A stretch of DNA of 64,000 bases from a virus. The notes below the pieces were generated by a model. That model ran no database searches. It saw nothing but the letters and a program-made list of their open reading frames with translations, and had not been told where the DNA came from. Shown here piece by piece: positions 9,989 to 55,022 of the stretch (within the stretch, counting starts at the first letter, position 1; each line of letters opens with the position of its first letter). The stretch lies in the UHGV virus genome UHGV-0091736. The stretch is one strand, 5' to 3'. The position numbers and the translations under genes were made by a program.

Positions 9989-9997
9989 TATACATTA
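9989..9997 (-). promoter_or_regulatory. TAATGTATA promoter-like element upstream of the SSB-like gene
   Basis: Exact 9-mer on the minus strand about 60 nt upstream of the start at 9930. Confidence 0.4.
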
Positions 9998-12331: not shown

Positions 12332-12484
12332 TCAATGGGTGTGCATCCAATTTAATCCAATCTGGCAATCAGAAGCCAGAGGACACTCCATGTTCAAATA
12401 CTCACCAGCTTTCTTGACACAAAGCTCGGTGTGCTCTTTGAGTTTCTTTACATCGTTACGATTAACTGAGAATTGGCCCTCATC
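12332..12484 (-). CDS. Family A DNA polymerase, exon 2 (C-terminal 50 aa including the DE of motif C)
   Basis: Translation DEGQF...NMECPLASDCQIGLNWMHTH resembles the T7 DNA polymerase C-terminus as I recall it. Confidence 0.7.
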   Translation of the reverse strand, partial: DEGQFSVNRNDVKKLKEHTELCVKKAGEYLNMECPLASDCQIGLNWMHTH

Positions 12485-13091
12485 CATTTACGTTATTCCC
12501 AAATTACTTCGGGTATCGGACTATATCATAACAGTATAGCTAATTTACTGTTGTTGGCGCTTCGAGGGTTTCCCTGTTAACCCCCTACTCCCGCAGGATA
12601 GTCTCTACACTTTCCACTTTCGAATCCATCTACAAGCGATTCCAAAGCTCACACCAAACCTTTCTGCAAGAGCAACACCAGTGCATTCATTGTTAAGCCA
12701 GAACTCTTTAGCAGCATCCTGTCTTTCTCTATTTCTGCCAGTGTTTGATTCAATAGCATGTGCACTACCTTCTAAGATTTCTAGATGGTCAGTATTACAA
12801 CAAGCTCTATTCTTGCATTTATGGTTAACTTCATAACCGTCAGGAATTTTTCCAAATTCCTCTTCCATGACGTATCTGTGATACATGACCCATTTGCCAT
12901 TTATCACTTTTCGAAAGTAACCGTCTTTATTTAATTTGTGTGAGATAGGGATGATACATCCTGTGCTAGTTGTTTCTAGCACTAGATCTTTCTTAGCCAT
13001 ATCACCTCCTAATAGCTTAGCTCGGTATTGCCCTCAACTTAATGGTCGGGTTTCACCGAGTTCACCAACTTTTACATGCACAATGAAGTTT
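12485..13091 (-). mobile_element. Self-splicing intron (probably group I) in the DNA polymerase gene, carrying an HNH ORF
   Basis: Exon 1 ends in T (CAT), intron ends in G (ATG); splicing restores HDE motif C in frame. Confidence 0.65.
12605..13000 (-). CDS. Intron-encoded HNH homing endonuclease
   Basis: GYEVNHKCKNRACCNTDHLEI motif; AGGAGG Shine-Dalgarno upstream of ATG. Confidence 0.7.
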   Translation of the reverse strand: MAKKDLVLETTSTGCIIPISHKLNKDGYFRKVINGKWVMYHRYVMEEEFGKIPDGYEVNHKCKNRACCNTDHLEILEGSAHAIESNTGRNRERQDAAKEFWLNNECTGVALAERFGVSFGIACRWIRKWKV

Positions 13092-14783
13092 ATGCATATC
13101 AATTACCTTAGCACAACGAACTCCATCCTTCTCAATCCACTTGTTAAGGAACATCATAGCGTATTTCATAACAACAGCACCAGCACATTGCAGGAGTGTG
13201 TTAAGTGCTTTATGAACCATAACTTTACCAGTGGCATCTCGTCTCATTGTAATCTTGCGACCATCAACACCAATCAAGTACCCTTGAGCAGCTTTCTCTG
13301 TCATGCGATCAATGAGGATTGCAATACATGGGTTCTCTGCCAAGAAACGTGCTCGCATCACTGAACCTTCATCAGCCCCGCCACCTACAATTGAACCAAG
13401 CTTAGCATCACCAGCACCATAGTTGAATGCATAGATAAATGTCTTAGCATTGTCACGAGTAGGGAGACCAGCAAGTTTCTGGTTGTGGGAGTGGATATCC
13501 CCTTCGAGGAGAATATCACGATACATAATAGCAGAAGCTAAACCGCGTTCTGCCAGAGCTTTCTTAGCTGGATTATTCTCTTCGATTGCTTCAGCAAGCA
13601 TATCTCTACATTCTTTGATGAGGTAGTGAGCGAGCATACGAAGTTCAAGTCCAGAACCATCATACCCTAAGAATACTTCTTTACCAGCGGGTATGTAATA
13701 TTTGTAAGCACCTACAGGTTTGTCTTTCTTCCCCGGCTTACCTTTCTCGTAAATTACGTTAGTACCTTTTCGTATATAACAACCATCAGGAACAACGTTA
13801 GTAATAACGAAAGGACGAGAGTGATCACTGTCTGAGTTATAGTCAGACTCAAACAAACTGCGACACTCGTGACCAAACAAACCACGGGAGGGAATATTAA
13901 CCACGATACGATGTTTGAATCGAAAAGTCGGCGTAGCGCAGCTGTTAGCTTCTGCCGAAAGTTTACCATCTTCGCGTTCCTTTGCTATAAGTCCACTGAT
14001 AAGACCTAGCCTGTGAGCCGCTACAACACGTCTCTTAAGCAAACTTCCAACACTCCCTAGCTCACCCCCTAACCCTTCTTCAAGAGTCTCCTCGAGGTTT
14101 GTAGGAGCTGTAGGCCACTTGTTTGATGTAGCTAGTGCTTTCTTAATCTCATCAAACGTTACAGGGTTACGGCGATTAGGGTTTAATCCCAAACCAAACA
14201 CGTAAGCCTTCATGTAATTCTTAGTCTTAAACCTAAAATGCTTTTCTAAGAATTTCTTGATATCAGCGTCAACCATCTCGGCTGTCTGCTTCTGCTTAGC
14301 ACTGCCTCTCATCCAAGCAGTGTACCAAGCCTGATATGTTCCATACTTTCGCATGTCTTTCTTAATTTCGAAAGTATTCCAAGGCTTCTTAGATACGTTA
14401 AACTCTGGAGGAAGAAAGCCCTCATCCATAAGAGCTTCTTTAACTCGTGCATCTTTCGATGGGTCAAAGTCTACATATTCTACACAGGTGAATGCTCCAC
14501 CAATGTCTTCTCTCTTCAGCCCAACCCTATCACAATAAGCTTGAGGCCACTTCTGCAAAGCACCAGACTTCTTAAACGGCTTCATGTAAGTAGAGCCATC
14601 TAATCTCATCTTAGGTAAGAGAGGAATCAACTCTCTATCAATATTAACAATAATCTCTTTAAGGAGGTGAACATACCACCGAGCATTTCTTCGGTTGAAA
14701 CTCACTCCGTGCTTTGCTTGCTTAGAGATTATATCAGCGACAGTCATCTCTGTCAAAAATGGAAGAGCGTCCGGGTTGCTCAC
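13092..14783 (-). CDS. Family A DNA polymerase (T7 gp5-like), exon 1, polymerase domain without the 3-prime to 5-prime exonuclease domain
   Basis: Motif B TRDNAKTFIYAFNYGAG and ALNTLLQCAGA; ORF stops 9 codons after the His of motif C. Confidence 0.8.
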
Positions 14784-52076: not shown

Positions 52077-52102
52077 TGTTGATAATGTAGAAGGAGTATA
52101 AA

Positions 52103-52576
52103 ATGTTTGGAGAAAACGGAGAACTCACGCCTGCACAGGTAGCTGAGATTACAGGAAGATTACCCGGAGTAACGGAAGAACTTGAAGGCCGTGGTATGAA
52201 CCCAAGCAATGGGAAGTTTCAAAAGGGGAATAAATTCGGACGACCCAAAGGTAGTAGAGGTAAACTGACACAATTAATGTTGGACCGTGTTGCTGCAAGT
52301 CATTTGTCTCCTGATGAAGTGTTAATTCAAATTTACGAAGATCCTAATATTCCACCTGATCTTAGATTCAAGGCTGCATCAAAAGTTGCAGATCTGGTAT
52401 ATCCTAAGGCGGCCTCCGTTGAAGTTAAGATTGAGGAAGAGAATGTAATCAACGAAGAATCATTGAATGCACAAATCAAGGACTTCTTGACTGGAGCACT
52501 TGGTATCGACGTTATGCCTCCAGAAGAAGACAACTCTGAGGACGCTGAAAAGGGGGAGGAAGCGGACGAGAGTTAA
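52103..52576 (+). CDS. Putative terminase small subunit
   Basis: Immediately upstream of the large terminase; basic HTH-like N-terminal region, acidic C-terminus. Confidence 0.45.
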   Translation: MFGENGELTPAQVAEITGRLPGVTEELEGRGMNPSNGKFQKGNKFGRPKGSRGKLTQLMLDRVAASHLSPDEVLIQIYEDPNIPPDLRFKAASKVADLVYPKAASVEVKIEEENVINEESLNAQIKDFLTGALGIDVMPPEEDNSEDAEKGEEADES

Positions 52577-52645
52577 GTAAAGGAAAGAAGGGGAGGTTCT
52601 TTGACGAAGGGACTTTCCCTTTTCTATTTTTAAACTGGAGGAAGT

Positions 52646-53251
52646 ATGTCACTAGATAAACAAATTTATGAAGCTCTAACTGGTAACAATCTTAGTGTAG
52701 ATGAAAAGAAAGCACTATTGAATATGTTGAAAGAGCGTGACCAATGGAGGAAGTATAATAGGATTTTGTCTTTCAAGGCGTATGACTTCCAAAAGAAATT
52801 TTATGCAGCAGGATTGAAGCATAGGTTCAGGTTTCTCTGTGCGGCTAACCGAGTTGGGAAAAGTTACAGTGAAGCGTACGAATTCGCATGCCACGTTACC
52901 GGAAGATATCCAACATGGTGGACCGGTCATAAGTTTAAGAGGCCAATACTTGCGTGGGCTGTAGGGATTACAGGGGACTCAACAAGGAAAGTATTGCAAA
53001 AAGAATTATTTGGTACACCAATTGGAAAGGACACTAATCTGCTAGGTACTGGAGTTATTCCACGAGATGCAATAGTAATAGATACTATAGAAAGGGATGG
53101 TAATAAGCTACAGATAGTACAGATTAAGCACCAGAATGAAAGGGGTGAGTTTGATGGATTAAGTACGTTAGAATTTCGATCAACACAACAGGGTGAACAT
53201 ACACTGATGGGTGCTACTGTTGATTATATATGGCTGGATGAAGAGGATTGT
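52646..53251 (+). CDS. Terminase large subunit, exon 1 (ATPase N-terminal part through Walker B)
   Basis: Walker A AANRVGKS and Walker B YIWLDE; track ORF stops two codons after the proposed splice point. Confidence 0.7.
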
Positions 53252-54037
53252 ATATAACATAGCTAGAAGTGTTGGTCCTCTATAAACTCGGTGAATTGCT
53301 GGAACCTCTGACCCTTAAGTGGAAGACAATCAGCAGCGAAGATAATGTATAACTTACTCATGATACATTATAACGTTCAACGACTATCGAAAGCATAGCC
53401 CGTATGGGTGAAGAAGCAAGTAGAGTAGATACCAAGTGGTATCGAAGTGCCGAGCAAAACTAAGGAGTGATACATTGGGTAGACCTAACAAATCATTAGA
53501 TTCAACCAAAACATGTTCAGTGTGCTCTGTAACAAAAGACATAGAATCTTTTGCAATAAGAACAAGAGCAATATCCACTGGAGAGGTTAGAATCTACCGT
53601 AAGTCTCAATGCAAAGAGTGCATGGCTGAGATGAGAAGGGATTGGGGTAAGAATAATCCAGATAAGATTCGTGAGAATAATAATTCTCCAAATAAGAGAG
53701 CTTGCGATAATGCAAGACGGGCTGGATTAGAAACTGCTTCTATTATCAGAGATGATGAGTATAATAAATTTGTTATGGAAGAAATGTATGAACTTCGAAA
53801 TCTTAGAACAAAGGAAACTGGATTTCAATGGCATGTAGATCACATAATCCCTTTAAAAGGTAATAACGTATGTGGTTTTCATGTCTGGTATAACTTGCAG
53901 GTAGTTCCTGCTGTTTTCAACCTATCTAAGAGTAATAGTTTTGATGATATAGTCTGCTCTGCATGGAAACATGCAGCTGGAGAAATCCGGGATGAGATTA
54001 ACGATCTTGTCTGAACAACACGCCATATGAGTCTATG
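53252..54037 (+). mobile_element. Self-splicing intron (probably group I) in the terminase large subunit gene, carrying an HNH ORF
   Basis: Exon 1 ends in T (TGT), intron ends in G (ATG); splicing joins Walker B to the ITATP motif in frame; shares AACTCGGTGAA block with the polymerase intron. Confidence 0.55.
53436..54014 (+). CDS. Intron-encoded HNH endonuclease (probable TTG start at 53475)
   Basis: [24 protein letters not shown] motif; AAGGAG then TTG; TAATGTATA at 53343-53351 upstream. Confidence 0.65.
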
Positions 54038-54961
54038 GCTATATTCGCACAGTGCGTCACACGTACACTCACAACTAAAGGTCTAGTTACAATTACAGCT
54101 ACACCAGAGAACGGTTTAACTGAACTGGTAGATAAATTTATGAAAGGTGAAGGGGATGAGAACACAGGTTCTCTATATTTCCAGAATGCTTCTTGGTGGG
54201 ATGCTCATGCAGACCTAGGTGGACATATCACTGACCAAGATATAAAAGATATGACTGAAGGTATTCCAGCGTGGCAGTTAGAGATGCGTTCGAAAGGTAT
54301 GCCATTGTTAGGAAGTGGTTTGATATATGATGTATCGGATGACACAATTAAATGTGAACCATTCGAAATTCCTGATACGTGGAAACGTGTCTGTGCAATT
54401 GATATTGGTATTGATCACCCAACTGCTGCTGTTTGGACAGCTTACGATGCAAACACGGATACTGTCTATGTTTACGACTCATATAAAGAAGGTGGCTTTA
54501 CTCCAGTGTATCATGCTCCAGCTATTAATGGTCGTGGTCAGTGGATTCCTGTCATCCTACCGCATGATGCGGACAATATTGAGAAAGGTAGTGGATCATC
54601 TGTTGCTCAATTCTATAAGAATGCAGGAGTTAATGTACAGAGTGAGACCTTCTACAACAAAATTGGAATGGATGGTAAAAAGAACTTCTTTGTAGAACCC
54701 GGAATCACAGATATCCGAGAAAGAATGATGAGTGGACGCTTTAAAATCTTTAACACAGCTGCTAACGCTAAGCTATTCGAAGAGAAAGCTAGATATCACC
54801 GCAAGGTTGGTAAGATTATTAAAGAACATGATGACTTAATGGATGCAATGCGCTATTCAGCGTGCTCTGTTACACATCGTGGTCGCTCTAAGCATGACGT
54901 TAGCTACGGAAGTGCTTCTCTGTATGAGGCAAACGTAAGCAGATGGAATCAGAGTTACTAA
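54038..54961 (+). CDS. Terminase large subunit, exon 2 (coupling motif and nuclease domain)
   Basis: LVTITATPENG motif then Asp-rich nuclease-like region. Confidence 0.7.
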   Translation, partial: AIFAQCVTRTLTTKGLVTITATPENGLTELVDKFMKGEGDENTGSLYFQNASWWDAHADLGGHITDQDIKDMTEGIPAWQLEMRSKGMPLLGSGLIYDVSDDTIKCEPFEIPDTWKRVCAIDIGIDHPTAAVWTAYDANTDTVYVYDSYKEGGFTPVYHAPAINGRGQWIPVILPHDADNIEKGSGSSVAQFYKNAGVNVQSETFYNKIGMDGKKNFFVEPGITDIRERMMSGRFKIFNTAANAKLFEEKARYHRKVGKIIKEHDDLMDAMRYSACSVTHRGRSKHDVSYGSASLYEANVSRWNQSY

Positions 54962-55022
54962 AGTAAGGGGGAGGTTTGTCCTCCCTTCTTTTATTTAAGC
55001 TATCAACCGAGGGAGAGAATCG

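Follow-up and report, generated by a model that had tools for sequence, protein, structure and literature searches.

How does a phage make its large terminase subunit when the gene for it appears to be in two pieces? The question is raised by the virus genome UHGV-0091736, in which a stretch of 64,000 nucleotides (nt), hereafter the window, carries an open reading frame (ORF) of 203 amino acids (aa) at 52646-53257 that matches the Pfam family Terminase_6N, an ORF of 308 aa at 54035-54961 that matches Terminase_6C, and a third ORF between them. The answer developed here is that 53249-54022 is very probably a mobile group I intron, td-like in architecture and inserted into the terminase gene (terL) of a Kuravirus-like coliphage, and that the third ORF is the gene of its HNH-family homing endonuclease.

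Boundaries of the insertion in terL

The window belongs to a Kuravirus-like coliphage. A megablast comparison of 52600-55000 with 50,697 phage records matched 125 of them, mostly Escherichia phages, and the top record, MN03, belongs by its classification to Kuravirus (Gordonclarkvirinae; phiEco32/SU10-like prolate podophages). Each of the 30 matches listed aligns as two pieces that together account for 68% of the query, and none of the 50,697 records covers 80% or more of it; terL is therefore uninterrupted at this place in every matching isolate. Apart from one divergent patch, the window terL is 99% identical to that of intronless isolates such as MN03, and global alignment with the MN03 gene leaves a single clean insertion of 774 nt, 53249-54022. 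Excising it in silico yields a TerL of 514 aa that is colinear with the MN03 protein and identical to it at 512 residues (...YIWLDEED|PYESMAIFAQ...). Among all in-frame junctions, 53248|54023 alone reproduces the intronless protein. In the spliced TerL the Terminase_6N match runs unbroken over the junction (residues 66-255), its score rising from 39.9 to 56.6 bits, and Terminase_6C is matched at residues 326-482. The uninterrupted site in MN03 reads ...TTAGACGAAGAAGAT|CCATACGAGTC... (also given as ...TGGTTAGACGAAGAAGAT|CCATACGAGTCTATGGC...), and the predicted junction of the ligated exons is GAGGAU|CCAUAU (...GAAGAGGAU|CCAUAUGAG...).

The insertion follows codon 201, two codons past the Walker B Asp-Glu pair (D198-E199) and 25 residues ahead of the TAT/ATPE motif encoded in exon 2. 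A first-pass annotation of this DNA had placed it between Walker B and the coupling motif, which holds at the level of pattern (codon 201; ITATPE 225-230); the Walker A, Walker B and ITATPE assignments are made by sequence pattern, together with the Terminase_6N match that spans the junction. That annotation had flagged its exact junction as uncertain, and the junction is the sole part found wrong. It set the intron at 53252-54037, whereas the MN03 alignment puts the start 3 nt and the end 15 nt earlier. Exon 1 was thought to end in ...DEEDC; its real end is ...DEED (T53248), and the ‘C’ and ‘I’ that finish the ORF are intron read-through. Exon 2 begins with PYESMAIFAQ at 54023, four codons ahead of the ATG at 54035, and the earlier junction would lose PYESM and gain a cysteine. 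The nuclease domain assigned to exon 2 does lie there, as seen from Terminase_6C and from a match to the P22 terminase 4dkw (E = 4e-31), although the exon does not start where it had been drawn. The rule invoked for the boundaries, a U before the intron and a G at its end, agrees with the corrected positions (U53248, G54022). A G also precedes exon 2 in L003, L004, L008, L010, L014 and L017, the L numbers denoting other sequences in this comparison. As a separate feature of the locus, strong terminator-like hairpins with T-runs flank terL on the plus strand, at 52586-52623 just before the start and at 54967-54987 just after the stop.

Ribozyme architecture and covariation

The proposal that terL is split by a group I intron stood up in three respects: ribozyme architecture, compensatory base changes and the exact restoration of the reading frame. 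Run in E-value mode, Rfam model RF00028 matches 53230-53976 with 45.0 bits (E = 5e-10 locally and 3e-8 for the whole window) and an insertion of 470 nt in P8. At the same terL site the model scores 63.7 bits in L010, 51.5 in L014 and 45.5 in L017, and it gives 73.4-73.6 bits for a sister intron in Proteus phage 3H10_20 and L013, so that L010, L014, L013 and the Proteus phage lie above the gathering score of 50. Trimmed of its ORF, the RNA folds with z = -3.2, better than 100 of 100 shuffles, and its minimum free energy (MFE) fold displays P1, P4, P5, P6a, P7.1, P7.2, P8, P9, P9.1 and P9.2. The elements are listed in Table 1.

Table 1. Features of the terL locus, in positions of the window
Feature	Position	Strand	Remarks
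Divergent exon patch 5' of intron	52823..53245	+	Read as co-conversion tract; ~79% identity vs ~99% in the rest of terL
terL exon 1 (codons 1-201)	52646..53248	+	MN03 alignment, Terminase_6N; Walker A AANRVGKS 66-73, Walker B DYIWLDEE 193-200
Group I intron, 774 nt, td-like architecture	53249..54022	+	
P1	53243..53280	+	Exon GAGGAU 53243-53248 pairs with guide GUCCUC 53275-53280; U53248·G53275 marks 5' splice site
P1a hairpin in P1 loop	53255-60 with 53269-74	+	MFE fold
5' ribozyme core	53287..53461	+	Pair counts, MFE fold
P3 5' strand	53287-93	+	
P4	53296-302 with 53330-36	+	
P5	53307-09 with 53324-26	+	
P6	53337-38 with 53374-75	+	
P6a	53342-50 with 53363-71	+	
TAATGTATA	53343..53351	+	Exact phiEco32 gp36 sigma consensus; P6a 5' strand, 124 nt upstream of endonuclease start
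P7 5' strand	53382-87	+	
P7.1	53399-401 with 53406-08	+	
P7.2	53428-33 with 53438-43	+	Compensated C53432T/G53439A
P3 3' strand	53448-54	+	
P8 5' strand	53455-61	+	
Shine-Dalgarno AAGGAG	53462..53467	+	7 nt ahead of TTG start, at start of P8 loop
HNH-family (His-Me finger) ORF, 179 aa	53475..54014	+	In P8 loop, running into 3' ribozyme core
3' ribozyme core	53937..54022	+	Terminal G54022
P8 3' strand	53937-43	+	
P7 3' strand	53949-54	+	
P9	53959-65 with 53970-76	+	GAAA (GNRA) loop
P9.1	53977-80 with 53987-90	+	
P9.2	53991-97 with 54005-11	+	
terL exon 2 (codons 202-514 + stop)	54023..54961	+	ITATPE 225-230, remainder of ATPase, RNase H-like nuclease domain

Covariation was assessed on an alignment (A1) of seven copies of the intron, which represent four independent lineages. 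Unguided, RNAalifold recovered P1 with its U·G pair, P4, P5, P6a, P7, P8, P9, P9.1 and P9.2 from this alignment. All six pairs of P1 are kept in the seven sequences, a C to U change of the guide in L010 and L014 giving G·U. In the canonical structure, which includes P3 and the P3/P7 pseudoknot, 97.1% of the cells pair and 19 of the 65 pairs have changed on both sides. None of 500 shuffles reached the observed percentage paired, the observed pairs or cells changed on both sides, or the covariation score, and 4 of 500 reached the observed value for further pair types. When the partners were slid by 1-3 columns as a control, pairing dropped to 35-46% with at most four compensated pairs. P9.1 and P9.2 both covary (in P9.2 all seven pairs have changed on both sides), and P3 has one compensated pair; P4 and P7 are invariant and hence uninformative. 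P7.1 and P7.2 were excluded from the pair counts because MAFFT misaligned both between lineages. Close variants show compensated changes in P7.2 (C53432T with G53439A) and P9.2 (A53997G with T54005C). In place of P3, RNAalifold, which cannot draw pseudoknots, drew GGUG/GUUCA pairings to the 3' end, which were rejected: they are mostly invariant and their sole variable pair is mispaired once. The canonical P3, with its compensated pair, is preferred.

The intron is td-like in having P7.1/P7.2, P9.1/P9.2, a GNRA-capped P9 and a td-like 3' end, its last 80 nt (the P7'-P9-P9.1-P9.2 region) being 84-88% identical to the T-even td introns. Its 5' half shows no BLAST similarity to td introns and it lacks P2, so that no formal assignment to subgroup IA2 is made. 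From its class, we infer that it would splice as follows. In the late terS-terL transcript GAGGAU would pair with GUCCUC to form P1, with U·G at the cleavage site, the P3-P9 core would fold, and a free guanosine bound in P7 would attack after U53248. G54022 would then replace the guanosine and the exons would be joined, giving a TerL of 514 aa laid out as in intronless relatives.

The endonuclease gene and the case for homing

The ORF in the P8 loop likely starts at TTG 53475, directly past the P8 5' strand, and a Shine-Dalgarno sequence and start stand at the equivalent place after P8 in L010, L014 and L017. The first-pass annotation was right that an HNH ORF is preceded by TAATGTATA (53343-53351) and by a Shine-Dalgarno sequence (AAGGAG, 53462-53467); the TTG at 53475 is in frame. 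The predicted product has two CxxC pairs near its N-terminus and the motif HVDHIIPL(x7)G(x5)NLQ(x6)N..K.N, in which D122, H123, N140 and N149 do not vary among 17 homologs. The product has a match in PHROG 1035 ‘endonuclease VII’ (E = 4e-20) but in no Pfam HNH family, the sole related Pfam match being His_Me_b4a2 (E = 0.05); PF01844 is matched by 4 of the 17 homologs. A profile of the ORF gives a weak match to the HNH domain of ZRANB3 (E = 0.27), Foldseek returned nothing, and there is no detectable sequence match to any solved HNH structure. Membership of the HNH family thus has moderate support from these motif and profile matches. The last ~23 codons (from ~53943) are also P8 3' strand, J8/7, P7', P9, P9.1 and P9.2. 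Residues 157-179 have no counterpart in homologs outside P8-type terL introns and are confined to P8-located copies; the ORF thus reads on into the ribozyme core up to a stop. Codon differences from L003 comprise 19 synonymous and 4 nonsynonymous changes, where ~20% synonymous would be expected by chance, and the protein is therefore under purifying selection.

The endonuclease would be translated from its own Shine-Dalgarno sequence and probably transcribed from its own promoter within P6a. TAATGTATA is the promoter consensus of the phiEco32 gp36 sigma factor, whose transcripts begin 6-8 bp downstream of it (PMC8948821). The window holds five exact copies against 0.85 expected from shuffles. 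The other four, at 9989(-), 10179(+), 16168(-) and 60279(+), are intergenic and stand upstream of a Shine-Dalgarno sequence and ATG; two of these are arranged divergently. A further copy with one mismatch, TAATGTAGA, lies at 52083(+), just before a 157-aa ORF at 52103 that precedes terL. These four and the 52083 copy are probably gp36-type middle/late promoters of the phage. For the copy in the intron, a promoter of the endonuclease is a plausible reading of its sequence and position. RNA started there would lack P1-P6, could not fold into the ribozyme and would serve as endonuclease mRNA.

A serious contender, to which we give somewhat less than even weight, is that this copy is no promoter and is merely a strand of P6a, the template for endonuclease translation being either the late transcript before splicing or the intron once excised. 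The motif is indeed one half of a perfect 9-bp stem (ATAATGTAT with ATACATTAT) that is A/T-rich, and the sister introns differ there with compensating changes (TAATGGATA in L010, for example). Yet an exact match of nine bases in a 774-nt intron is expected by chance only ~0.005 times (scaled from the shuffles), this one points toward the ORF at a workable distance, and all four of the other exact copies in the window occupy promoter-like positions.

The presence of the intron is polymorphic. It is absent from all 125 matching phage isolates, no phage in the isolate collection having the window's terL intron, and is carried by at least 13 metagenomic contigs, as is the exon 1 ORF with its read-through tail. 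One contig, L002 (an ENA scaffold), is identical to the window over the compared region. A 55-mer of the intron core, the spliced junction and a patch-specific 27-mer have no exact match in IMG/VR or JGI contigs; the lineage of the window is therefore represented only in ENA and Logan assemblies. The looser core pattern AATTGCTGG...CAATCAGCAGC finds at least 120 unrelated viral contigs, none with the window's terL intron, and was rejected as a diagnostic, being a generic phage group I motif.

Every homolog of the ORF at 55-65% identity is situated within a terL gene, in further SU10-like metagenomic phages. L010, L014 and L017 have exactly the window's insertion site (GAAGAGGAT|...G|CC(T/A)T...) with the ORF again in P8, and four diverged lineages from gut metagenomes keep the terL arrangement, each with intact exons. 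Among cultured phages, the closest counterpart is found in Proteus phage 3H10_20 (L021; MT740244), whose terL is split by the sister intron at ~589-1311; in L013 it lies at 2232-2954. The Proteus phages 3H10_20 and vB_PMG_YP1 (Privateervirus) and L013 share with the window the endonuclease family (55% identical), the ribozyme family (GUGAAUUGCUGG...CAAUCAGCAGC core) and the gene and motif interrupted. Their intron is inserted 9 nt (3 codons) further upstream, however, at LD|EED rather than LDEED|; its ribozyme core is complete before the ORF, which follows P9 instead of lying in P8 and has no ribozyme-encoded C-terminal tail. The GenBank record of 3H10_20 gives two ‘terminase large subunit’ CDSs (coding sequences) and an HNH gene, with no intron. 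Separately, the SU10-like L014 has a second terL intron upstream (1-700), with a GIY-YIG ORF at 202-702, in the Walker A coding region; the exon resumes at ...|AGGTTGGAAAAAGC (GKS), and RF00028 gives a partial match of 34.8 bits at the contig start.

The exon on the 5' side of the intron bears what may be a footprint of its arrival. Between -426 and -4 relative to the intron there are 97 differences from MN03 (78.6% identity), most of them separated by multiples of 3 nt, and the whole TerL differs from that of MN03 at 2 of 514 residues. By comparison, identity is 98.7% over the first 150 nt of exon 1, and exon 2 has 10 differences in 939 positions. Among 138 matching phage records the best identity to the 453 nt upstream of the intron is 80%, whereas 15 records match the 453 nt downstream at 99% or more (3' flank 99.3-99.6%). 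The patch is common to all intron-bearing contigs of the window type, with two different end points; L005 turns MN03-like upstream of ~-340. L010 was considered as donor and rejected, being only 79.5% identical in the patch. Because it is intron-linked, one-sided and variable in length, the patch is read as co-conversion, a process reviewed in PMC3984707, that accompanied homing from a divergent donor not yet sampled. On mixed infection, an intronless terL would be cut or nicked by the endonuclease within the conserved sequence that codes for Walker B, and repair templated by the intron-bearing genome would copy the intron, together with upstream exon bases on a scale of several hundred bp, into the recipient. 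The start of exon 2 is a perfect inverted repeat (54022-54039, G|CCATA TGAGTC TATGG C) that begins at the 3' splice site and is also present in intronless MN03 (CCATACGAGTCTATGG); it could be a chance occurrence in coding sequence or a piece of the endonuclease target.

Several points weigh against a mobile group I intron. The window's RF00028 score of 45 bits is below the gathering score of 50, and a default Rfam gathering scan of the window found nothing; that scan also missed a 60-bit tRNA, a tRNA-Arg (anticodon TCT) at 40340-40416 (-) that both ARAGORN and the E-value mode of Rfam (60.1 bits) detect, and it is therefore not taken as negative evidence. P2 is absent, 5-6 nt (UAUAA) separating guide and P3 in the window and in all sister introns, and P10 is weak, its one or two pairs flanking a mismatch. 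The covariation comes from four lineages, with a P8 loop cut by hand to 8 nt and a structure derived from the window sequence. A search of IMG/VR and JGI metagenomes for the spliced junction found nothing. TAATGTATA is missing from the sister introns of L010, L014 and L017 and may be recent or coincidental. Finally, the patch could in principle stem from ordinary recombination unrelated to homing.

The last point leads to the better of the remaining alternatives, which we regard as improbable: that the ribozyme splices but the element is not mobile as proposed, the ORF being a relic or having some other role (a splicing helper or a packaging-associated HNH protein), or the patch reflecting ordinary recombination. 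Some phage terminases are known to have HNH proteins as partners (Kala et al. 2014, as cited in PMC9965538), and the ORF, lacking a direct Pfam HNH match, has an H-N-N variant of the catalytic motif; against a relic, it is intact and under purifying selection in every lineage, and its catalytic D-H, N and N are invariant across the 17 homologs. Phage mosaicism is common, but this patch abuts the intron within 4 nt, is shared by intron-bearing contigs and occurs in none of the 138 phage records. The same endonuclease family also sits within a different ribozyme layout 9 nt away in the Proteus phages, as expected of an active site-specific homing gene.

Very unlikely indeed is a free-standing HNH gene inside terL with no splicing, the fallback of the first-pass annotation, in which two TerL fragments would assemble or terL would be a pseudogene: gene callers and GenBank annotators do read such loci as two terminase CDSs and an HNH gene, exon 2 has an in-frame ATG at 54035 and no spliced terL RNA has been observed, yet the insert's non-coding sequence makes up a whole group I core in which compensatory changes are seen, sister introns score above the Rfam threshold, the boundaries restore the terL frame exactly, the break falls within the ATPase core two codons past the catalytic Glu, 54035 has no clear Shine-Dalgarno sequence ahead of it and would leave out PYES, and at least four diverged lineages have retained this layout, all of them with their exons intact. 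An intein is ruled out by in-frame stops and by the RNA structure, and a group II intron by the lack of any such structure.

If the element is a mobile intron, a further and more speculative step, which we think less likely than not, is that the terL Walker B site of Kuravirus- and Privateervirus-like gut phages is a hot spot at which ribozyme and endonuclease modules are still reshuffling. It would fit that one HNH family occupies P8 in one intron and follows P9 in its sister 9 nt away. It would fit, too, that the window copy might have recruited a gp36 promoter into P6a, nine bases then serving as both DNA promoter and RNA helix, and that each invasion would overwrite 340-430 nt of ATPase-coding exon on one side only. 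Such one-sided overwriting, if true, would point to nick-initiated, polar repair.

Related introns, significance and the other introns of the window

The closest well-known parallel is the td intron of T4 and other T-even phages with its endonuclease I-TevI. It too is a phage group I intron with P7.1/P7.2 and P9.1/P9.2 and an endonuclease gene in a peripheral loop. Expression of I-TevI is driven by late phage promoters that lie within the td intron itself, the arrangement proposed here for the window ORF, and when td homes, the exon sequence on its flanks is co-converted. The two differ in host gene (td against terL) and in the endonuclease, which is of GIY-YIG type in P6a in one and of HNH type in P8 in the other; the window intron also differs in lacking P2 and in having a candidate promoter of the Kuravirus gp36 sigma type. 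In the DNA polymerase introns of the Bacillus phages SPO1 and SP82, which are also group I, an essential conserved gene is interrupted and the HNH nicking endonucleases I-HmuI and I-HmuII are encoded in the P8 loop, their homing being started by a nick and accompanied by conversion of flanking markers. Phage, gene and endonuclease subfamily are different from those of the window.

Nearer in host is the DNA polymerase intron of the N4-like coliphages PhAPEC5 and PhAPEC7, again a group I intron with an HNH ORF in an enterobacterial podophage. It is annotated ‘HNH endonuclease inducing intron mobility’, and the 3' end of its ribozyme is 81% identical to that of the window. It differs in residing in a DNA polymerase gene, and its HNH ORF is not among the listed tblastn matches to the window ORF. 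Introns in terL occur elsewhere, in Bastillevirinae such as SIOphi; they are group I, some with HNH ORFs, and splicing of the SIOphi terL has been shown experimentally (PMC11878797). These are Gram-positive myophages, with terL sequences and insertion sites unrelated to those of the window. Phage terminases are among the typical targets of group I introns (PMC3984707). The literature searched yielded no paper that pairs introns with Kuravirus, phiEco32 or SU10-like phages, and the window, with three, is the first evidence found for group I introns in Kuravirus-like phages. The mechanism is not surprising: selfish elements of this kind are well known, what is new is the occurrence in this phage group, and nothing here alters the understanding of how such elements work.

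The practical consequences concern annotation and phylogeny. A split terL is now deposited as two ‘terminase’ CDSs and an HNH gene, and recognition of the intron gives the correct TerL of 514 aa. A comparative study of Kuravirus left out four genomes on account of ‘assembly errors’, the criterion being that the terL ORF was incomplete (PMC9965538, section 3.4); in some of the four, terL may have been interrupted rather than mis-assembled. As terL is a standard phage marker, an imported patch of ~430 nt (79% against 99%) would distort nucleotide trees. That homing still goes on among gut coliphages is suggested by the combination of presence/absence polymorphism, an endonuclease gene under purifying selection and the footprint of co-conversion. 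If so, the locus would be a convenient system for studying HNH-driven one-sided gene conversion and the control of a homing gene by a phage sigma factor.

The other two introns of the window are on the minus strand. A second group I intron splits a primase/helicase gene at 24238-26648, with RF00028 scoring 48.6 bits at 24542-25162. Exon 1 (25083-26648) ends in ...GSRSLM plus read-through and exon 2 begins at ~24495; an HNH-like ORF of 111 aa at 24671-25006 (HLDHTRDNN...NLEW) starts just past the P6-region sequence GAGCUAAGCU. The third splits the DNA polymerase gene at 12340-14783 and has a weak RF00028 match (27.5 bits, 12497-12677). Its exon 1 is 13062-14783, an HNH ORF of 131 aa lies at 12605-13000, and the C-terminal exon ends at ~12340 (...CPLASDCQIGLNWMHTH*). 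The 5' end of this intron (...TGTGCATGTAAAAGTTGGTGAACTCGG...) closely resembles that of the primase intron (...TGCGCATGTAAAACCTATTGAACTCAGG...), and on account of this likeness the two may be related.

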